Under the pieces are notes generated by a model that had not been told where the DNA came from, did no database searches, and saw nothing but the letters and a program-made list of their open reading frames with translations. The position numbers and the translations under genes were made by a program. DNA of 64,000 bases from an uncultured Clostridia bacterium (GTDB taxonomy: Bacteria > UBA6262 > WVXT01): positions 9,995 through 73,994 of the forward strand of contig CAYOFG010000005.1 in assembly GCA_964403285.1 (NCBI GenBank). The letters run 5' to 3'. The first letter of the stretch is position 1. Each line of letters starts with the position of its first letter. Below, in pieces: positions 14,891-55,952 of the stretch.

Positions 14891-14922
14891 TTGACAAAAC
14901 CTGTTTTTTGTGGTAATATAAT
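14891..14922 (+). promoter_or_regulatory. putative promoter upstream of riboswitch 1
   Basis: TTGACA at 14891-14896, with TAATAT/TATAAT 17-20 nt downstream. Confidence 0.4.
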
Positions 14923-14979
14923 ATTGCCCTAAGGGAGCTTGATAAGAGTTGTTTTGACAACATAATAAGTGAGTTTGAA

Positions 14980-15058
14980 TTGTCCGATAAAGGCAAACCT
15001 CGAGAAATCGGGGGGCGCAAAACCTCGGATCTAAGGAGCCACCTCTATGATGGCCGGG
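14980..15058 (+). promoter_or_regulatory. c-di-GMP-I (GEMM)-like riboswitch, copy 1 (translational type)
   Basis: UCCGAUAAAGGCAAAC, then the hairpin CCUCGA-GAAA-UCGGGG (GNRA loop), then GGCGCAAAACC. A second stem CUCGG...CCGGG encloses the AAGGAG SD and the AUG at 15047. Confidence 0.45.
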
Positions 15059-16765
15059 TTGCCGAAGACAATAAACAATATATGGAGCCGAATAGGCAGG
15101 AAAACGTGCTTGTTCGGTTTTATATTTATATTAACTGTAGTTCCTTTAAGAATTATTGCATTTGCTGAGAGTACTGAACAGACTGTTTTAGGAAATCTCC
15201 AAGTTGTCAATAACACGCTGTTTGGAAAATTCAATTATGGCAATGAACGTGCGGAAGGATTTCTGGAAGCTAAAGAGTCTTTCCCAGGAGGGGTAAGCGG
15301 CTTTGTAATAGGGACAAACATTGGTCTGGGTTCTCTTGAGGAGAATTGCGGAAAAGGGAAAATAGACGTAAAAGTATGTTTTACTAATGATAATCCGGTA
15401 TGGGAGCGAAGCGCTCTTTATAAAGTAGGAGCCGCATGGCTTCCCCAGTTGAATCTTGGCTCTACTCACTTAAAAGCCAGGCTGGGCCTTAGAGGGGGTT
15501 ACCTTTCAGTAACGACCACTACCGAGCCGATAGACCCGCCATACCCCTCTCAATTCCTTTATGGAGGCGAGAGCGGACTATCCATTTCCCAGGAGTTCAA
15601 AGGGATAACTTTTGAGACCGGAGTTACCGGGTATATGACTTACAGTTTCTATAATCAGACTAATCAGGTTGATAATTCGGGAATTGAGTTACAGGCGGGT
15701 AGCAGAGTAGAGGTTCTTCCGGTTATATTAAGACTGGGATGGACGGGGACTTTAGTAAGCTATAATCAGGACAAATACTTTTTTCTGGATTCTATGAGAG
15801 AGGACAGTTACGAAGTTAGCATCGCCTATGCTGGAGAAAGGTTTGGTGTGGGACTATTCAATTCTCTGGAAATCAGAGAGGGAATAGAATTTGCAAGGAA
15901 GAGGGACCTGACAGGTATGGGAGTCCAGGTAGGCGGATGGTTAGCGAAGGGGATTTTCTCGCAGGACCTTCTGGTCGGGAAAGAGGCCTTCACAATTTCA
16001 CTGGGTAGAGATTTTTCTGATGCATATTTTGAAGCCTACTGGACAAAAGACCAGAATTATGTAGAGACAGGTAATGGTAACATTTTTGGAGTGAGTTTCA
16101 AGTGCGGGATTGGGCCTAAGCCATCTGATCTTGTGGAAATTGAGTCTTATAAGAGTTATGTTCGAGAAGGTGATAGTCCGTTCAACGCATTGCCCGATTT
16201 TCGCCTGCCATTTACTGAAAGCGTAGAAAGACTCGATACTATGAACAAGGTTATAAGGTACACCAGAAGTAACCTGGAATATATCCCACAGAATGGTTAT
16301 GACCGCGACCCCAAGGAAGTGTTCGAGTTGAGGGGAGGAGACTGTGATGAGCAAGTCTTCTTTCAGCTACATGCCCTGAAGTCCCATGGCTATGATGATT
16401 TATACGAACTGGCTTTCGTGTCTCCCAGAATGGCACACGCCTTCTCATACGGTAAAGATAACAGGACAGGAGAAGAATATATATGGGAGTATGGCAGGGT
16501 ATTCAGATTGGATTTTGACCCTGACTCAAGCCTCTCAGAAAAGGAGAAGATGGCAGCTATCCTTTCATCCAGGAGTTACACAGAGGACTGGGAGTATCTT
16601 TGGACTTTCAAACCCCCAAGTTCTGACTATAGGAAATACAATTACCAGGATATGGAATGCGTTTATGAAGCCTGGAGTGACGAGATAGATATTTCAGGAG
16701 ATACGGTACAAGTAATTCCTGAGTCGGGAATAAGATTATTTATCGGCACAGAATTTGAAGAATAA
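15047..16765 (+). CDS. secreted protein, paralogue A of tandem pair (function unknown; C-terminal GGDCDE-containing domain)
   Basis: 572 aa with an N-terminal signal/TM. More than 90% identical to 17145-18818 across most of its length. Confidence 0.75.
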   Translation: MMAGLPKTINNIWSRIGRKTCLFGFIFILTVVPLRIIAFAESTEQTVLGNLQVVNNTLFGKFNYGNERAEGFLEAKESFPGGVSGFVIGTNIGLGSLEENCGKGKIDVKVCFTNDNPVWERSALYKVGAAWLPQLNLGSTHLKARLGLRGGYLSVTTTTEPIDPPYPSQFLYGGESGLSISQEFKGITFETGVTGYMTYSFYNQTNQVDNSGIELQAGSRVEVLPVILRLGWTGTLVSYNQDKYFFLDSMREDSYEVSIAYAGERFGVGLFNSLEIREGIEFARKRDLTGMGVQVGGWLAKGIFSQDLLVGKEAFTISLGRDFSDAYFEAYWTKDQNYVETGNGNIFGVSFKCGIGPKPSDLVEIESYKSYVREGDSPFNALPDFRLPFTESVERLDTMNKVIRYTRSNLEYIPQNGYDRDPKEVFELRGGDCDEQVFFQLHALKSHGYDDLYELAFVSPRMAHAFSYGKDNRTGEEYIWEYGRVFRLDFDPDSSLSEKEKMAAILSSRSYTEDWEYLWTFKPPSSDYRKYNYQDMECVYEAWSDEIDISGDTVQVIPESGIRLFIGTEFEE

Positions 16766-16798
16766 AAACAAGGGCAACCAAAGAGGTGGTGCTCCCTT

Positions 16799-16835
16799 AC
16801 CGCCAGTACCAGGAAGGGTACTGGCGGTTTTTTTT
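16799..16835 (+). terminator. rho-independent terminator
   Basis: ACCGCCAGTACC-aggaagg-GTACTGGCGG followed by eight T residues, directly after the stop of paralogue A. Confidence 0.75.
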
Positions 16836-16931
16836 AAAAAAGGGGACAGGCTACTTTTTCAAAATTTTACGTATTTTTTACAATTTTTTTACACATCCGT
16901 GATATTAATAGTATAGACTGTATTTAAATAT

Positions 16932-17066
16932 TCCGAAAAGGCAAACTCCGAGCAATCGGAGGGCGCAAAGCCTTGGGGTTACATAGATATACAACATTGC
17001 AGTTGAACCAGCCGGGCTGCCGATAACGAGTAGGGGAACCCGTTAGGGGTAGCCCGGCTTTTTTTT
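16932..17066 (+). promoter_or_regulatory. c-di-GMP-I (GEMM)-like riboswitch, copy 2 (terminator type)
   Basis: UCCGAAAAGGCAAAC, then hairpin CUCCGA-GCAA-UCGGAG, then GGCGCAAAGCC. Further downstream, the stem GCCGGGCU...AGCCCGGC plus eight U residues forms an intrinsic terminator just before the RBS/ATG of paralogue B. Confidence 0.55.
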
Positions 17067-17144
17067 AATCTGCTAGCCCACAAACTCAGTATGGAAAATG
17101 CTGTCAAAAGGGATGAAAAACTTTGGGAAAGAAGTGGGGGAAGT

Positions 17145-18818
17145 ATGTTCAAGGCATGCTTGTTCGGTTTTATATTTGTCATATTGACTATAGTTTCTTT
17201 AGAGACTATTACATTTGCCGGCACTTCTGACGAGACCATTTTAGGAAATCTCCAAATTGTCAATAACACCCTGTTGGGAAAATTCAATTACGGCACTGGA
17301 CGCGTGGAAGGATTTCTGGAAGCCAAAGAGTCTTTCCCGGCAGGGGTAAACGGCTTTGTAATAGGGACAGACATTGGACTGGGTTCTCCTGAGGCGAATT
17401 GCGGAAAAGGGAAAATAGACGTAAAGGTATGTTTTACTAATGATAATCCGGTATGGGAGCGAAGCGCTCTTTATAAAGTAGGAGCCGCATGGCTTCCCCA
17501 GTTGAATCTTGGCTCTACTCACTTAAAAGCCAGGCTGGGCCTTAGAGGGGGTTACCTTTCAGTAACGACCACTACCGAGCCGATAGACCCGCCATACCCC
17601 TCTCAATTCCTTTATGGAGGCGAGAGCGGACTATCCATTTCCCAGGAGTTCAAAGGGATAACTTTTGAGACCGGAGTTACCGGGTATATGACTTACAGTT
17701 TCTATAATCAGACTAATCAGGTTGATAATTCGGGAATTGAGTTACAGGCGGGTAGCAGAGTAGAGGTTCTTCCGGTTATATTAAGACTGGGATGGACGGG
17801 GACTTTAGTAAGCTATAATCAGGACAAATACTTTTTTCTGGATTCTATGAGAGAGGACAGTTACGAAGTTAGCATCGCCTATGCTGGAGAAAGGTTTGGT
17901 GTGGGACTATTCAATTCTCTGGAAATCAGAGAGGGAATAGAATTTGCAAGGAAGAGGGACCTGACAGGTATGGGAGTCCAGGTAGGCGGATGGTTAGCGA
18001 AGGGGATTTTCTCGCAGGACCTTCTGGTCGGGAAAGAGGCCTTCACAATTTCACTGGGTAGAGATTTTTCTGATGCATATTTTGAAGCCTACTGGACAAA
18101 AGACCAGAATTATGTAGAGACAGGTAATGGTAACATTTTTGGAGTGAGTTTCAAGTGCGGGATTGGGCCTAAGCCATCTGATCTTGTGGAAATTGAGTCT
18201 TATAAGAGTTATGTTCGAGAAGGTGATAGTCCGTTCAACGCATTGCCCGATTTTCGCCTGCCATTTACTGAAAGCGTGGAAAGACTCGATACTATGAACA
18301 AGGTTATAAGGTATACCAGGAGTAACCTGGGATATATCCCACAGAATGGTTATGGTCGCAACCCCAAGGAAGTGTTCGAGTTAAGGGGAGGAGACTGTGA
18401 TGAGCAAGCTTTCTTTCAGCTACATGCTCTGAAGTCCCATGGTTATGACGATTTATACGAACTGACCTTCGTGTCTCCCAGAATGGCTCATGCCTTCTCA
18501 TATGGTAAAGATAACAGAACAGGAGAAGAATATATATGGGAATATGGCAGGGTATTCAGATTGGATTTTGACCCTGATGTAAACCTTTCAGAAAAGGAGA
18601 AGATGGCAGCTATCCTTTCATCCAGGCGATGCACAGAGGATTGGGAACGCTTCTGGGCCTTCAGACCTACAAGTTCCGACTATAGGGACTACAATTACCA
18701 GAATATGGAGTGGGTCTATCAAACCTGGAGTAACGAGATAGACATTTCAGAAGATACGGTACAAGTAATTCCCGAATCGGGAATAAGGCTATTTATTGGG
18801 ACTGAATTTGAAGAATAA
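17145..18818 (+). CDS. secreted protein, paralogue B of tandem pair
   Basis: The ORF is called from 17091. The ATG at 17145 (MFKACLFGF...) has the strong RBS GGGGGAAG and aligns with the start of the signal peptide. The body is near-identical to paralogue A. Confidence 0.75.
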   Translation: MFKACLFGFIFVILTIVSLETITFAGTSDETILGNLQIVNNTLLGKFNYGTGRVEGFLEAKESFPAGVNGFVIGTDIGLGSPEANCGKGKIDVKVCFTNDNPVWERSALYKVGAAWLPQLNLGSTHLKARLGLRGGYLSVTTTTEPIDPPYPSQFLYGGESGLSISQEFKGITFETGVTGYMTYSFYNQTNQVDNSGIELQAGSRVEVLPVILRLGWTGTLVSYNQDKYFFLDSMREDSYEVSIAYAGERFGVGLFNSLEIREGIEFARKRDLTGMGVQVGGWLAKGIFSQDLLVGKEAFTISLGRDFSDAYFEAYWTKDQNYVETGNGNIFGVSFKCGIGPKPSDLVEIESYKSYVREGDSPFNALPDFRLPFTESVERLDTMNKVIRYTRSNLGYIPQNGYGRNPKEVFELRGGDCDEQAFFQLHALKSHGYDDLYELTFVSPRMAHAFSYGKDNRTGEEYIWEYGRVFRLDFDPDVNLSEKEKMAAILSSRRCTEDWERFWAFRPTSSDYRDYNYQNMEWVYQTWSNEIDISEDTVQVIPESGIRLFIGTEFEE

Positions 18819-20923: not shown

Positions 20924-21892
20924 CTAAAATTTAACTTGTAGTTGAGTCATGAACAAATCGTTTCGTATACTCGGGGTTTCCATTTTTTGTTCGTAATTAT
21001 TTCTGAAGAGAACATTTTTATCAATGAAATAGTTCACTCCCCAGGTCCACCTGCTATTTTCATTATTTGATACATTTATATCTGGATCCAGAGAATCGTA
21101 TCTTAGTAATATGACTACAGATGGGATTAAGGTATATCCTGCAGTGACATAATATCCTTCCTGCTTTGTTGTTTCATCAATACCTGTAATGTATTCTGCT
21201 TTACACATAAATTTTTCAAATTCATATTTCATTTCGAAACCCGTTCGGTTCTTTGTAATACTGTTGGCACGAACGGAGCCATCATAAATTGAAGCCCCGA
21301 CACTAAGGCCGACTATGGGTAGGAATAATATTCTGCCTACGACTGTTTTTTGAGAATTTTCCTCTGCCTGATTCGAACCACTCCCGTTAAGAATTGCAAC
21401 AAAAACATTTGATTTTATGGATTTCAAAGAAAAACTTCTGGAGAGTTCAATACCGATATCTCTTGTGGGCTTTACAGAGTTATTTACAATATCCGATTTA
21501 TCTATAAATTCTAAATCAGCGTCTGGGGTACACTGTTCAAGTGAAAACTTGTATTTAAACTGTCCAACACGTAATATAAAATATTTGATTGATTTGACGT
21601 CAAAATAAGTATCATAAATTAACTTATTATTAATAGTATCAGTATTACTACCTTCAAGTGAGAAACAATATGAAATATTTTTTGATATATTCCCAATAAT
21701 CCCAAACCTCGATTGAGCAATACCAAAGCCGTCTTTTGCTCCTTCCGTAGTATCTGCAGTATATCTGACCCTGGCAAAACCGGCAAAACTAATTTTAGGA
21801 AAATCGGAATCTGCACTTGTTAATACCTGCATTGAAAATGCGGTCTTTACTGAAAAGAATAATACAATGCAAAGCAAGAAGTATTTTTTCAT
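20924..21892 (-). CDS. outer-membrane beta-barrel porin (phosphate-selective porin O/P-like, putative)
   Basis: Signal peptide MKKYFLLCIVLFFSVKTAFS, alternating amphipathic strands, and a C-terminal ...QLQVKF ending in an aromatic residue. Confidence 0.5.
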   Translation of the reverse strand: MKKYFLLCIVLFFSVKTAFSMQVLTSADSDFPKISFAGFARVRYTADTTEGAKDGFGIAQSRFGIIGNISKNISYCFSLEGSNTDTINNKLIYDTYFDVKSIKYFILRVGQFKYKFSLEQCTPDADLEFIDKSDIVNNSVKPTRDIGIELSRSFSLKSIKSNVFVAILNGSGSNQAEENSQKTVVGRILFLPIVGLSVGASIYDGSVRANSITKNRTGFEMKYEFEKFMCKAEYITGIDETTKQEGYYVTAGYTLIPSVVILLRYDSLDPDINVSNNENSRWTWGVNYFIDKNVLFRNNYEQKMETPSIRNDLFMTQLQVKF

Positions 21893-22743: not shown

Positions 22744-23134
22744 TATTCACCTCAAAAATAAAAAATCCAGCATTCCGCACTTGCAAAATACTGGACTTCG
22801 TTTCTCCTTCTCAAGCACGGAAAGCGCACCGATTTCTCAATGCACTCTATCGGCCATCAACCATATCTTTTGGACTTAGGCAAAGTGGCTCGGAGAATAT
22901 TTTTATAGCATAGTATAAAAATTATACTTTTTTGTCAAGTAAAAAAGAGATAGATGTTATCCAAAGGCTTTACCCACCCAGATTCTCGTTCTGGGAATCT
23001 TAACTTACCGGCAACCTCTGTTCGCTTCTGGTCATTTAGAAGTGAAAGCTTGACGAATTCTTATTTTCCTTGATTTTTATAGGAGGTTTAGATATAATAC
23101 TTTTGGTATTCTGGATAGTTCTAAGGTTGTGGAT

Positions 23135-53229: not shown

Positions 53230-54240
53230 CTAAAAATGGATGATTAATGAAATCTTGTTATCCCGGGTATAACCTATCATTTCACTTGCCGGCACATTAG
53301 CCCAATCGAATTGATAGTTCTTAAGTTTAATCCCCATCCCGTAAGTTGCTCCCCTAACATTGCCATCTTTTTCATAATAACCAAATCGTAGGAAAATTGC
53401 ATCTTTGAATTTGTGTTCTCCTCCCATATGTATGCGCCATCGGTCGTTGAGAACTTTGTTAATATCACTGGCAATGATCCAGGGACCCTTATTGTAAGAA
53501 AGACCTAATCTTATTGTTCTCGGTAAATCATCCTTTTTGATTTCTCCTTCCATCTGAAGTCTGTTTCCTGCATTTAAGAGAGAAGACCCCAGATTCAATC
53601 CCTTGGCAAAAGGAAATTCATAAATGAGACCAAAATCTCCAGAATATGCTGTTCCTTTGGTAGTTCCAAAGATAGGGTCACTTTCTATCCGTTGGATTAC
53701 CTTAAACCCAAGACCAAAAGAAAGGCCTCCTGTAACTTCTTTACCATACGATAATGCTAATGCCCAATCTGTCCACCTTAGGTTCCCCAAAGTTTTACCC
53801 CCTGTATCTGTTACCGGGAGAGGGTCAATAAACAAAAATACCCCACTTATTTCATAAGTTCCCCAACCCTTTACGGGAACAGCTAAACCAAAAAAGTTAA
53901 GGAAAGCGTCCCTTACCGCCTCGCTATACATTGCTGCGCATTGTATCCTCTTTATTTTTGCTAACCCTGCAGGATTCCAATAAGCAGAAGTTACGTCAGA
54001 ATGGAGGGAAACAGAGGCCTCTCCCATTGCAGAGGGTCTGGCTCCTATGCCAAATATAAGAAAATCTACATAGGTGGGACGTATATCGCCGGCATATGCA
54101 TTTTTTACTAATGCACAAAATGCAAAAATCAAAAATAAAATTTTAAAAGTTGATTTAATCATTTTCCTAATCTGGTAGTCGCAAGCTTTAGCTTGCGTTA
54201 AACTTCGCAGTCTGCGGGATATTTTGTTCACAGGGCTCAT
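53230..54240 (-). CDS. outer-membrane beta-barrel protein, PorV/FadL-like family
   Basis: Signal peptide, GIGARPSAMGEASVSLHSDVTSAYWNPAG (same family motif as 47547), and a C-terminal ...ISLIIHF. Confidence 0.45.
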   Translation of the reverse strand: MSPVNKISRRLRSLTQAKACDYQIRKMIKSTFKILFLIFAFCALVKNAYAGDIRPTYVDFLIFGIGARPSAMGEASVSLHSDVTSAYWNPAGLAKIKRIQCAAMYSEAVRDAFLNFFGLAVPVKGWGTYEISGVFLFIDPLPVTDTGGKTLGNLRWTDWALALSYGKEVTGGLSFGLGFKVIQRIESDPIFGTTKGTAYSGDFGLIYEFPFAKGLNLGSSLLNAGNRLQMEGEIKKDDLPRTIRLGLSYNKGPWIIASDINKVLNDRWRIHMGGEHKFKDAIFLRFGYYEKDGNVRGATYGMGIKLKNYQFDWANVPASEMIGYTRDNKISLIIHF

Positions 54241-54306
54241 AAATAATAATACCTCTCGGTATAATTATTATATATCAGACTTTTGCGTGCCGAGAGGTAA
54301 TATATA

Positions 54307-55779
54307 TCATTTCAGGATAGCCATTCTTTTGGTATCTATAAAATCACCTGCTTTTAACTGATAATAATAGATACCGCGCGAAAGTCTATCGCCAGCATCG
54401 AAATGTTTTGAATAACTTCCTGCCTGCTGATACTCATCCACGATAGTGGCTACTAACTGTCCACAAATGTTATACAGTTTTAAGGTAACGTGGCAATCCT
54501 GAGAAATAGCGTAGTTTATTGTCGTTGATGGATTGAATGGATTGGGATAATTCTGTCCCAAAGAATTTTTTGCTGACTCGGCTAGTTCTCTTTTATCGCC
54601 TGGATCAGACTGTCCAGGTGAAGATGATGAAACGCACATAATCTGATACAGGCAATACCCTGTCCTTTTCGTGGTGACACTTTGTTCTGCCGGGTCTAAT
54701 GTGGAATCGGGCATAACTTCCCATTGAGATGTTGCTTCATTCCATCCACAGATTACGATATTTTCTGTATCCATCCCCTGGATATCTTCGTCCCTGAAGA
54801 AAAGTCGCACCAGCTTTCTCCCTTTAGGGAAGATAAATCTGGGAGCAATAGGCTTAAGGTTTTGTTCCTCTATAGCATTTTCCTCAAGGGTGGTTGAACC
54901 TTCATAGGTGACGATGAGTGCGGGGTACCCATTGACAATTTGCGTATCATAATCCAGGGAAATCGTAACATAGTAAATTCCCTTGTCCCAATTTCCCCTT
55001 ACAGTTTCAGTAAGATCCCATTCATAGCCACCGCCTTCAATAATGGGTAAGAAGTAGTGTTTGGCAAATTTATGCTCAAGCAATCTCGACCACTTGCGGT
55101 TTAAGAATTTTCTCAGCCAAAATTTAATTCTCCAATCATTCTTTCGGTAATTCATCCACAACAGGGCTTTTACGATTGTGGAATCTGAAGATAAGTGCTT
55201 GCCTAAACGGAAAATAAACGTCTTTTCTCTGGCATTTACAGGGAAACATTTTCCCGGCCCAATAACTCTTAAGGTGTCAACTCCGGTAAACTTTTCTCCA
55301 CTTGCGAGCAATCCTTCAATGGTTATTTCAACTTCGTCTCCGGGACTAAGAACATTTATTAAATCTCCTCTTGCAAACTTCGCTAATAGACAATTATCGC
55401 TTTCTGTCCCTGACTTCGTCGTTTTATCTGCGGGTATTGGTTCTATGGGATATCCATCGATTGCCGAGATTTGTACGGTATTTCCATCAATCTGATTGAC
55501 ATTGAACTCATCCGGCAATCTAATAGATGCGGTAATATATTTACCCATGCTCTTAAGGTTTATGGTGTTTGGGGTTATATTCACGGTTACTGCTATGGGT
55601 TCGGGAGGTGGAGGTTCAGGTGGAGGTGGAGGCACGTCATCATCAAGATCATCGTCTATAGGTTCATCGACAGGCTCTCCCATCACGACAACTGTGTCGG
55701 CTTGGGCAAAAGTAGGGAAAATAGATAAACCCGTTATCAGCAAACAGCCAATCAGAAATAGCATAAGGGTTTTTTTCAT
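54307..55779 (-). CDS. secreted protein with Pro-rich linker and T9SS C-terminal sorting domain
   Basis: Signal peptide. A DDDLDDDVPPPPPEPPPPEP linker. C-terminus ...GQNYPNPFNPSTTINYAI...LKLYNICGQLVATIVDE...GIYYYQLKAGDFIDTKRMAILK, the hallmark Por_Secre_tail. Confidence 0.6.
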   Translation of the reverse strand: MKKTLMLFLIGCLLITGLSIFPTFAQADTVVVMGEPVDEPIDDDLDDDVPPPPPEPPPPEPIAVTVNITPNTINLKSMGKYITASIRLPDEFNVNQIDGNTVQISAIDGYPIEPIPADKTTKSGTESDNCLLAKFARGDLINVLSPGDEVEITIEGLLASGEKFTGVDTLRVIGPGKCFPVNAREKTFIFRLGKHLSSDSTIVKALLWMNYRKNDWRIKFWLRKFLNRKWSRLLEHKFAKHYFLPIIEGGGYEWDLTETVRGNWDKGIYYVTISLDYDTQIVNGYPALIVTYEGSTTLEENAIEEQNLKPIAPRFIFPKGRKLVRLFFRDEDIQGMDTENIVICGWNEATSQWEVMPDSTLDPAEQSVTTKRTGYCLYQIMCVSSSSPGQSDPGDKRELAESAKNSLGQNYPNPFNPSTTINYAISQDCHVTLKLYNICGQLVATIVDEYQQAGSYSKHFDAGDRLSRGIYYYQLKAGDFIDTKRMAILK

Positions 55780-55791
55780 TATTACCCCTGG

Positions 55792-55952
55792 AATAAAAAA
55801 ACCGGCTTGCCTACTCTTTTAGAGTTTTTTCGGCAACCCGGCTCGCATGGAACGGTATCTTCGGCAACCAGCTAGCATAGACCTACCGGTCTTTAGCCCC
55901 GTGGCTTTGCGTCCTCCGATTTCTCGGAGTTTGCCTTTATCGAATACCCCTG
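55792..55952 (-). promoter_or_regulatory. c-di-GMP-I (GEMM) riboswitch with intrinsic terminator expression platform
   Basis: Minus-strand RNA: GGGUAUUCGAUAAAGGCAAAC, then UCCGA-GAAA-UCGGA (GNRA hairpin), then GGACGCAAAGCCACGGGG. The P2 hairpin carries a tetraloop-receptor-like CUAAAG...UAUG. After that comes CCGGGUUGCC...GGCAAGCCGG plus seven U residues, then the RBS and AUG of 54307-55779. Confidence 0.7.

Follow-up and report, generated by a model that had tools for sequence, protein, structure and literature searches.

Two c-di-GMP-I riboswitch leaders before a tandemly duplicated gene, one of them with its translation start inside the aptamer

A stretch of 64,000 nucleotides from an uncultured Clostridia bacterium (the window) carries a gene in two tandem copies, each preceded by a structured RNA leader. 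Do the two leaders belong to a known riboswitch family, which ligand do they recognise, and does that ligand act on both copies in the same direction? A first-pass annotation had described GEMM-type leaders with different expression platforms, possibly degenerate or variant, and we used covariance models, comparison with orthologous loci and RNA folding to follow this up.

Family membership and covariation of the leaders

We searched the whole window with covariance models. The leader of copy 1 was found to match RF01051 (c-di-GMP-I) at 14982-15066 on the + strand, over model positions 1-87 of 87 (79.6 bits, E 5e-14). The leader of copy 2 matched RF03167, a model of the same clan, at 16931-17025 on the + strand (62.2 bits, E 3e-12). 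Each score lies above its gathering score (35 bits for RF01051, 59 bits for RF03167), so that GEMM-type leaders are present at both sites, one per gene copy, as had been annotated. Both leader types were found again upstream of orthologues at about 40 metagenomic loci, type 1 scoring 76-83 bits and type 2 scoring 54-65 bits; conservation ahead of orthologues, on which the annotation had made its reading depend, is therefore seen. Orthologues served for this comparison, as searching for exact matches to the window's own protein and to P0001 returned no contig. RF03167 gave 61.1-65.2 bits in type-2 orthologues and was not the best model for copy 1. Because only the best match per clan was listed, the standing of copy 2 against RF01051 is taken from L032 and L053, two near-identical type-2 leaders that differ from it by a few bases, for which RF01051 was the best model (57.0 and 54.2 bits, respectively). 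The well-known c-di-GMP class I (GEMM-I) family includes both leaders as ordinary members.

Pairing was examined in an alignment of 23 distinct aptamers that included both leader types. In the aptamer helices 96.7% of cells were paired, compared with 23-46% when the partners were slid; 11 of 24 pairs had changed on both sides, and the observed values were reached by none of 500 shuffles. P1, the 2-bp helix, the hairpin and P2 were all supported by covariation. The first hairpin reads CCUCGA-GAAA-UCGGGG at 14998-15013 in copy 1 and CUCCGA-GCAA-UCGGAG at 16946-16961 in copy 2, followed on the 3' side by GGCGCAAAACC and GGCGCAAAGCC as previously noted, and the claim that compensatory changes had kept both the hairpin and its GNRA loop agrees with this covariation. 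The W substitution described in the shared 5' block is really a 1-nt length difference (UCCGAUAAAGGC vs UCCGA-AAAGGC).

The columns equivalent to G20, A47 and C92 (Vc2 numbering) and the AAA linker were invariant in the same alignment. The role of A47 and the placing of the Vc2 numbers on these sequences are assumed from the Vc2 and Gs1761 sequences. In the junction both window aptamers carry GGCGC where GACGC is usual, with G for a highly conserved A. Roles of G20 and C92 in ligand contact have been described (PMC6140456).

Organisation of the two copies

The features of copy 1 were placed as follows, all on the + strand.

14891..14919, + strand: promoter-like site (TTGACA-17-TAATAT, TG upstream), from a consensus scan
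14939-14966, + strand: second candidate promoter, from the same kind of scan
14979..15072, + strand: type-1 c-di-GMP-I aptamer (RF01051, 79.6 bits, and covariation), with P1 at 14979-84/15067-72, the 2-bp helix at 14993-94/15017-18, the GAAA-loop hairpin at 14998-15013, P2 at 15021-31/15049-60 with an 11-nt receptor and a distal stem at 15036-38/15043-45, and the equivalents of G20 at 14992, A47 at 15019 and the C92 region at 15062-63
15033..15038, + strand: Shine-Dalgarno AAGGAG, read from the sequence, made up of the 5' half of the receptor and the first distal-P2 pairs
15050..15052, + strand: conserved start codon, the second AUG of UAUGAUGG, in the P2 3' strand, with A71 and U72 paired in P2
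15050..16765, + strand: copy 1 coding sequence (in the ORF list from 15047)
15085..15120, + strand: conserved 14-bp hairpin in the signal-peptide region, then U-rich sequence; terminator-like by fold and conservation, with a presumed function

The TTGACA...TGTGGTAATAT block of the first promoter-like site was also found upstream in orthologous loci. In copy 1 P2 is entirely canonical and carries the 11-nt receptor CUAAG...UAUG, to go with the GAAA loop of the first hairpin, and the ribosome-binding site lies inside the aptamer fold: AAGGAG (15033-38) and AUG 15050 both fall within P2 and the receptor, an arrangement conserved in three lineages. AAGGAG is invariant among type-1 leaders apart from one with GAGGAG; in the distant leaders L009/L010 and in L073 the Shine-Dalgarno is shifted, still within P2. 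The sequence GAUGGCCGGG is present in 28 of 28 distinct leaders, and the first AUG (15047) is not conserved and is missing from several. Since AUG 15050 is located in the P2 3' strand, the aptamer encodes MAGLPKTI, the first eight codons of copy 1 coinciding with the aptamer 3' strand plus P1. The MAGLPK N-terminus is kept in proteins down to 38-44% identity, and in every orthologue the start placed by gene callers falls 65-83 nt into the aptamer. Between aptamer and downstream hairpin lie 20, 23, 26, 29 or 38 nt among the 28 leaders, always 2 mod 3, so the reading frame from the aptamer AUG is preserved. Starts downstream of the aptamer were rejected, as none is conserved in frame and the spacer differences keep the frame of the aptamer AUG. 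The stem enclosing the Shine-Dalgarno and AUG had been annotated as a downstream platform for translational control; the enclosure and its fit to such control hold, but the stem is the aptamer's own P2 rather than a separate element. A literature phrase search for natural aptamers containing their own start codon returned nothing relevant, which is weak evidence of absence.

Folding of copy 1 gave -24.6 kcal/mol for the native secondary structure against a minimum free energy of -27.5 kcal/mol. In the unconstrained fold, about 3 kcal/mol below the native one, the Shine-Dalgarno is left open through an alternative GUCCGA/UCGGAU pairing, which shows no covariation because its sequence is invariant. 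As a local hairpin, P2 could form in the absence of ligand, which makes exposure of the ribosome-binding site in the apo state uncertain.

The hairpin inside the copy 1 coding sequence was predicted at -19 to -26 kcal/mol in 26 type-1 leaders. It is shorter in L009/L010 (8 bp, -12.4 kcal/mol) and in L073, where U7 follows. Pairing is kept in 97.1% of cells; 9 of the 14 pairs vary on one side and are paired still in most sequences. A DNA palindrome or operator was considered and rejected, since about 14% of the pairs are G-U, which pair in the sense RNA only. An antiterminator linking the aptamer to this hairpin, in which the aptamer tail GCCGAA repeats the hairpin 5' arm, was likewise rejected as the main mechanism, with 6 bp set against 14 bp. 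The hairpin is kept in most type-2 genes and deleted in the copy 2 of the window. Its presence hints at more than translational control of copy 1.

Downstream of copy 1 the following features were placed.

16799..16836, + strand: intrinsic terminator of copy 1, from a terminator scan; a T run preceded by a 12-bp stem, 8 of whose pairs are GC
16931..17025, + strand: type-2 c-di-GMP-I aptamer (RF03167, 62.2 bits, and covariation), with the G20 equivalent at 16940, the GCAA-loop hairpin at 16946-16961, the A47 equivalent at 16967 and the C92 equivalent at 17019/20
17010..17066, + strand: intrinsic terminator of the copy 2 leader, with 5' arm 17010-17021, 3' arm 17048-17059 and U run 17059-17066
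17145..18818, + strand: copy 2 coding sequence from its likely start, ATG 17145 after GGGGGAAG (mechanical ORF from 17091)

The terminator that follows copy 1 makes copy 2 a separate transcription unit. The copy 2 aptamer has a GCAA loop and a P2 without the 11-nt receptor; its distal P2 carries a 4-bp hairpin together with an asymmetric loop of 11 nt, which reads ACAUAGAUAUA in the window and ACAUAGAUAGA in the majority of orthologues. The earlier description of P2 as less canonical thus applies to copy 2 and not to copy 1. Nor does it speak for degeneracy, since a non-canonical P2 is a known correlate of the GYRA (here GCAA) loop: GYRA tetraloops go with a missing 11-nt receptor and GAAA loops with a receptor in P2 (PMC1950547). 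The GC-rich stem plus eight U residues, which had been taken to suggest transcriptional control, was confirmed and fits such control. Folded on its own this terminator reaches -33.5 kcal/mol; it dominates the minimum-free-energy fold of the full leader, and 10 orthologous leaders have kept it. The P2 3' strand of the aptamer, together with the C92 region, forms the 5' arm (17010-17021). The ATG at 17091 is ATA in orthologues and a purine-rich stretch just upstream of ATG 17145 is conserved, and from these alignments the mechanical ORF call probably misplaces the copy 2 start.

The coding parts of the two copies share 94% DNA identity over their aligned length, in agreement with the tandem duplication first proposed. 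The copy 1 protein has a long signal peptide, a predicted beta-barrel of about 18 strands and a C-terminal Cys-His-Asp protease-like domain, and the RGGDCDEQ motif is invariant in its alignment with the orthologues. Neither of the two proteins had a Pfam match at E <= 0.01, and relaxed thresholds gave a weak Transglut_core match alone (E 0.19). The structural model of the copy 1 protein (pLDDT 66.9) matched outer-membrane barrels and the CPR-C4 protease. The gene product is a secreted protein, probably of the outer membrane, with a beta-barrel and a C-terminal cysteine-protease-like domain.

Proposed switching and competing readings

From these sequences we infer ligand binding and the direction of each switch, and favour with moderate confidence a reading in which both leaders are functional c-di-GMP-I riboswitches, copy 1 being switched OFF by direct occlusion and copy 2 ON by antitermination. 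In copy 1, c-di-GMP would lock the aptamer fold with the Shine-Dalgarno in the receptor and the start codon in P2, keeping the 30S subunit off, and the gene would be OFF at high c-di-GMP. In copy 2, ligand binding would hold the P2 3' strand in the aptamer so that the terminator could not form; transcription would then read through and the gene would be ON at high c-di-GMP. The two switches thus probably have opposite polarity. A fuller scenario, which we offer as tentative, is that one messenger switches between the paralogues, high c-di-GMP shutting copy 1 through a ribosome-binding site in the tetraloop receptor of an aptamer that also encodes MAGLPKTI and opening copy 2 by antitermination, with the in-ORF hairpin turning the translational decision into premature termination each time the polymerase runs without a ribosome behind it.

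An altered specificity of one or both aptamers, for cGAMP (GEMM-Ib) or for the ligand of the c-di-GMP-I-GGC variant, appears very improbable, even though RF03167 is the best-scoring model for copy 2 and its orthologues (61-65 bits) and the junction reads GGC, not GAC, in both window aptamers. The G20 equivalent is G in 23 of 23 aligned aptamers, both window copies included, and the adenine needed for cGAMP, which cGAMP aptamers carry at this position (PMC6140456), is absent. Where the RF03167 consensus is CGCGAA and that of RF01051 is CGCAAA, copy 2 (CGCAAAGCC) has the A of RF01051, and the near-identical L032 and L053 are best described by RF01051; the preference of copy 2 for RF03167 is accounted for by its missing receptor and longer distal P2. 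With the A47 and C92 equivalents invariant as well as the specificity base, the suggestion of a degenerate or variant, possibly cGAMP-type, aptamer is not supported. The GGC and UAU variants were reportedly defined by Weinberg et al. in 2017, and the GGC variant presumably takes its name from a G in place of A at the A47 position. Given the invariant G20, A47 and C92 equivalents, copy 2 does not belong to the GGC variant proper; to annotate it with the Rfam name 'c-di-GMP-I-GGC' would be a mis-call, and both leaders are plain c-di-GMP-I riboswitches. Least credible of all is that they are decaying relics without a regulatory role. In type-2 genes the N-terminal coding region does hold what is left of a type-1 aptamer's 3' half, in decayed form, so aptamer decay occurs at this locus, but the two leader types, where intact, hardly vary among loci with proteins diverged to 73-90% identity, and such leader changes as occur keep the pairing.

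As to direction, copy 1 could instead be an ON switch in which the apo structure hides the ribosome-binding site or triggers termination and the ligand relieves this. Both ON and OFF members exist in GEMM-I, and a P2 able to form without ligand leaves an additional ligand effect on accessibility not obvious. We nevertheless regard this as improbable: only the native aptamer fold pairs or docks the Shine-Dalgarno and AUG, the predicted alternative fold frees the Shine-Dalgarno, and neither an apo-specific sequestering helix nor a ligand-sensitive antiterminator was found. A doubtful but more plausible proposal extends direct occlusion of copy 1 rather than excluding it. Here control would be mainly transcriptional, 15085-15120 acting as an intrinsic terminator that forms only when no ribosome follows the polymerase. 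By blocking initiation at the aptamer-embedded ribosome-binding site, c-di-GMP would cause the untranslated transcript to end about 90 nt into the gene (translation-coupled attenuation). The stable 14-bp stem with its U-rich sequence in type-1 leaders is consistent with this, as is its listing by the terminator scan; its many G-U pairs, unpairable on the opposite strand, point to a sense-strand RNA structure in which 97% of cells pair, and lineages at 38-44% identity have shorter hairpins followed by AUUUUUAUUU or U7. On the other hand, the U tract, dictated by Phe, Ile and Leu codons of the signal peptide, is broken (UUUUAUAUUU or UCUAUAUUU), and a search for a competing antiterminator found none. 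The hairpin also occurs in type-2 genes that have their own upstream terminator switch, yet is deleted in the window's copy 2, and is thus neither specific to the embedded aptamer nor essential.

With copy 1 read as an OFF switch and copy 2 as an ON switch, the locus suggests that c-di-GMP may choose between near-identical surface-protein paralogues, which goes beyond turning one gene up or down. Copy 1 offers a compact natural example in which the same nucleotides serve a large aptamer, the ribosome-binding site and the opening codons of a signal peptide; if confirmed, engineered c-di-GMP sensors could profitably borrow this design, and it would illustrate how RNA and protein coding jointly constrain one sequence. 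Knowledge of the riboswitch class itself is unchanged; the leaders are textbook members detected by Rfam at gathering score.

Comparison with known systems

Compared with c-di-GMP-I riboswitches of RF01051, such as Vc2 of Vibrio cholerae, the locus shares the full-length model match, the two hairpins with an AAA linker, the GNRA tetraloop with an 11-nt receptor (in copy 1), the G20, A47 and C92 equivalents and the 5' regulatory position ahead of a gene for a secreted or surface protein. It differs in that the ribosome-binding site and first eight codons of copy 1 lie in the aptamer, with no separate downstream platform, and in the junction GGC instead of GAC. With RF03167 and the cGAMP GEMM-Ib aptamers, copy 2 shares the clan, the fold and a score past the RF03167 gathering threshold; it has A, not G, where that consensus departs from RF01051, and in both copies the position responsible for cGAMP recognition is G rather than A.

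For copy 2 there is a close precedent. A terminator overlapping the 3' side of P2 was described in 78 of 322 GEMM RNAs, for which ligand was predicted to raise expression (Weinberg et al. 2007, PMC1950547). Like the GYRA, receptor-less members of that set, copy 2 combines a GCAA loop and a missing receptor with a terminator whose 5' arm is the P2 3' strand; we see no essential difference, and expression is likewise predicted to rise with ligand.

Copy 1 resembles instead the direct-occlusion riboswitches, in which the aptamer that the ligand stabilises itself contains the ribosome-binding site and there is no separate expression platform. This group comprises SAM-II/V, SAM-III, SAM-SAH and some preQ1-I/II riboswitches, and c-di-GMP-I is absent from the classes so described in a review (PMC10907184). 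Most of them are small H-type pseudoknots whose ligand touches or adjoins the ribosome-binding site (PMC10907184), whereas copy 1 is a large aptamer that holds this site in a peripheral helix and tetraloop receptor and has the start codon and eight codons inside.

Finally, in Bacillota c-di-GMP-I riboswitches have been described upstream of transglutaminase-like putative cysteine proteases of COG1305 (PMC12452182). The protein regulated here is similar in its invariant Cys-His-Asp core and weak transglutaminase-core similarity. Those cases have tandem aptamers in one leader, while the present locus has single aptamers in two transcription units and a protease-like domain fused to a beta-barrel.

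Covariation and conservation of the leaders

We scanned the whole window with Rfam at gathering thresholds. Both leaders of the tandem secreted-protein genes (copy 1 and copy 2) gave covariance-model matches, as did a third element:

14982-15066, copy 1 aptamer: RF01051 (c-di-GMP-I), full-length model, 79.6 bits against a gathering score of 35, E 5e-14
16931-17025, copy 2 aptamer: same clan, best model RF03167 (c-di-GMP-I-GGC), 62.2 bits against a gathering score of 59
55860-55945, minus strand, third aptamer (c-di-GMP-I): 84.2 bits

The first-pass annotation, whose description agreed with the sequence at 14980-17066 and which also mentioned the third aptamer, had assigned both leaders to the GEMM family; the Rfam matches and the covariation show this to be correct. 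Both hairpins that it quoted were found (CCUCGA-GAAA-UCGGGG and CUCCGA-GCAA-UCGGAG), each followed by GGCGCAAA(A/G)CC. The shared 5' block was present in both leaders, but a 1-nt deletion separates them and not the proposed W substitution. The leaders are thus additional members of a known riboswitch class, findable by standard annotation.

An alignment was made of 23 distinct aptamers, comprising both leader types (type-1, as in copy 1, with a GAAA loop and 11-nt receptor; type-2, as in copy 2, with a GCAA loop and no receptor), a distant lineage and the third aptamer. With the Rfam helices and outer P1 imposed, 96.7% of cells were paired, and changes on both sides were seen in 11 of 24 pairs. 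The covariation score was 0.335 against 0.205 in shuffles, none of 500 reaching the observed value, while slid-partner controls were only 23-46% paired. The compensatory changes spotted earlier are real and reach P1 and P2 too.

Relatives of the encoded proteins formed one group at 73-90% identity and a second at 38-44%; on their contigs synteny was the same as in the window, with the gene in one or two copies. The 85-nt type-1 leader preceded every single or first copy with enough upstream sequence (76-83 bits in Rfam), and the 95-nt type-2 leader preceded second copies (61-65 bits on RF03167; those of loci L032 and L053 scored 57.0 and 54.2 bits on RF01051). Distant relatives also carried an RF01051 aptamer (L009 and L010 at 64-66 bits, L073 at 39.5 bits). 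Model matches and leader conservation upstream of orthologues, whose absence had been named as evidence against the assignment, were therefore both found. In L073 (308-453) ~47 extra nt, which seem to form two small hairpins, separate the aptamer's first hairpin from its closing GC helix; this locus keeps the embedded AUG, plus a hairpin then U7 in the ORF. The order in L032 (1-4597) is gene copy, PAS kinase, then type-2 leader with another copy, so the second copy does not always directly adjoin the first.

Ligand-contacting positions and model choice

At the position adjoining the 2-bp GC helix on its 5' side (copy 1, 14992; copy 2, 16940) 23 of 23 aptamers had G, and there was no variation in the A47 equivalent or in the GCCGA segment with the C92 equivalent. 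We take these positions to be the equivalents of the ligand-contacting bases G20, A47 and C92 (Vc2 numbering), A47 being the first A after the 2-bp helix. In c-di-GMP-I aptamers G20 reads one ligand guanine and C92 pairs with the other; in GEMM-Ib RNAs, which sense cGAMP, position 20 is A (PMC6140456). The suggestion of cGAMP-type aptamers is therefore not supported.

Although RF03167 was its best model, copy 2 was ruled out as a GGC variant: the RF03167 and RF01051 consensus sequences read CGCGAA and CGCAAA, respectively, and copy 2 has A at the distinguishing fourth position, a mismatch to the model. Its higher RF03167 score is probably due to the missing receptor and the longer distal P2. 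GAAA loops accompany the 11-nt receptor and GYRA loops almost never do (Weinberg et al. 2007; PMC1950547). Copy 1 is of the former kind and copy 2 (GCAA) of the latter, so the receptor-less P2 of copy 2 is not a sign of degeneracy. In the GAC junction, G replaces the conserved A in both window copies, a small shared deviation.

Expression platforms of the two copies

The Rfam alignment of copy 1 was placed onto window coordinates. The features of both genes are as follows:

15033-15038: Shine-Dalgarno AAGGAG, the 5' half of the tetraloop receptor and first pairs of distal P2
15047: first AUG, within the UAUG of the receptor's 3' half
15050: second AUG, its A and U paired within P2
15047-16765: copy 1 ORF, 572 aa
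15085-15098 with 15107-15120 (extendable to 15080-15125): 14-bp hairpin, 35 nt into the copy 1 ORF, signal-peptide region
16799-16828 plus T run: strong copy 1 terminator
17010-17021: copy 2 leader terminator, 5' arm, AGCCGGGCUGCC
between the arms: its inner stem, 5 bp
17048-17059: its 3' arm, GGUAGCCCGGCU
17059-17066: its U run, eight U
17091-18818: copy 2 ORF, 575 aa

The earlier distinction between translational control of copy 1 and transcriptional control of copy 2 was judged right. The stem said to enclose the copy 1 Shine-Dalgarno and AUG does exist, but it is the aptamer's own P2. The codons GCC GGG UUG CCG AAG ACA AUA make up the 3' strand of P2, the C92 junction and the 3' strand of P1. 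We found GAUGGCCGGG in 28 of 28 distinct leaders, the first AUG being missing from several, and MAGLPK was the N-terminus even of proteins with only 38-44% overall identity. Between the aptamer and the conserved element that comes next lay 20, 23, 26, 29 or 38 nt, in each case 2 mod 3, and the frame was open. In L009/L010 and L073 the receptor half is no longer AAGGAG; a Shine-Dalgarno-like AAAGGAG or AGGA lies elsewhere in P2, 8-10 nt before an AUG. No conserved alternative in-frame start was found among the leaders compared. Taken together, these sequence patterns indicate that translation truly initiates inside the copy 1 aptamer.

The native secondary structure was predicted at -24.6 against a minimum of -27.5, a gap of ~3 kcal/mol, and in the unconstrained fold an alternative GUCCGA/UCGGAU pairing breaks P2 and frees the Shine-Dalgarno. 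With the Shine-Dalgarno and AUG lying in P2, direct occlusion is the most likely mechanism: c-di-GMP would stabilise P1, P2 and the loop-receptor dock, blocking initiation (OFF).

The terminator at the end of copy 1 makes copy 2 its own transcription unit. The copy 2 leader terminator (-33.5 kcal/mol) dominates the full-leader fold, and its 5' arm coincides exactly with the 3' strand of P2 and the junction that carries the C92 equivalent, so that aptamer and terminator are mutually exclusive. Ligand would favour read-through (ON). ATG 17091, the mechanical ORF start, reads ATA in orthologues; ATG 17145, after a purine-rich Shine-Dalgarno-like stretch, is the start that is conserved. In the L003 record the gene is called over-long (621 aa), reaching back through the terminator.

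The hairpin inside the copy 1 ORF spans codons for SR..RK.CLFGF, and none of the 28 distinct type-1-style leaders lacked it; its energy was -19 to -26 kcal/mol in the 26 close leaders, and L009/L010 have it as an 8-bp stem (-12.4). Of its cells 97.1% were paired; in 9 of 14 pairs one side varies, most variant cells still pairing, and a G-U share of ~14% argues for a sense-strand RNA structure. Distant lineages have shorter hairpins followed by AUUUUUAUUU or U7. The hairpin is kept in most type-2 genes and deleted in the window's copy 2. U-rich sequence follows the stem, which resembles a terminator. It could be an intrinsic terminator that acts only when the transcript is not translated, so that the translational decision would carry over to transcription. 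We consider this rather unlikely, as the U tract is interrupted and codon-dictated and no antiterminator for this hairpin was found.

Origin of the second copy, encoded proteins and known systems

The N-terminal extension of type-2 genes (…KELPGDMFKAID…) aligns with the 3' half of the type-1 aptamer in decayed form. L053 (1-330) has a chimeric leader: ~100 nt beyond a type-2 aptamer and terminator come an intact type-1 3' half (AAGGAGCCACCUCUAUGAUGGCCGGGUUGCCGAAGACAAU) and then the ORF, suggesting that the extension is a decayed embedded aptamer. Apparently the second copy acquired a new switch upstream as the embedded one decayed. The aligned coding parts of the two copies share 94% DNA identity, with an 851-bp run of complete identity (~15378-16228 in copy 1) between flanks at 79-95%, a pattern suggestive of recent gene conversion or possibly of an assembly effect in the metagenome-derived contig.

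Neither protein gave a match in the Pfam search, and a Transglut_core match at relaxed thresholds was weak (E 0.19). An RGGDCDEQ motif and a His and Asp further downstream were invariant among relatives. A structure model of moderate confidence (pLDDT 66.9) had ~18 beta strands, then an alpha/beta domain; a fold search returned outer-membrane barrels, and CPR-C4 cysteine protease for the C-terminal part. Upstream neighbours are a DUF5752 gene and a TreT-like gene, and downstream lies a PAS/HisKA_3 histidine kinase.

The third aptamer is followed by a terminator (55790-55945, minus strand; GCCGGGUUGCC...GGCAAGCCGGU plus U7) whose 5' arm nearly repeats the 3' strand of the aptamer itself. Encoded downstream of this aptamer are a 490-aa protein that has a C-terminal sorting domain for type IX secretion (54307-55779) and a protein weakly similar to PorV (53230-54240). 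With a phosphate-selective-type porin and predicted outer-membrane barrels also encoded (20924-21892, 53230-55779), the organism is evidently diderm and its taxonomic label doubtful; NCBI labels on related MAGs (loci L011-L021) read Clostridia, Firmicutes or Aminicenantes. The minus strand also carries a Moco/tungsten cofactor riboswitch at 22788-22907 (RF01055, 70.5 bits), its P3-like stem region mostly deleted in the alignment. In the syntenic locus L001 (9511-9722) a downstream FtsH homologue (1143 aa, running off the locus) has Intein_splicing and LAGLIDADG matches between two AAA matches, and is an intein-containing FtsH.

The leaders appear to be of modest interest for two predicted features: the embedding of a ribosome-binding site and N-terminal codons in an aptamer, and the switching of tandem paralogues in opposite directions. 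In Bacillota, transglutaminase-like putative proteases have previously been noted to be under c-di-GMP-I control (PMC12452182). An overlap of terminator and P2 as in copy 2 has been described for 78 of 322 GEMM RNAs (PMC1950547). A recent review of direct occlusion names SAM-II/V, SAM-III, SAM-SAH and some preQ1 riboswitches and not c-di-GMP-I (PMC10907184), so that direct occlusion in this class would be the single unusual aspect of the copy 1 leader.
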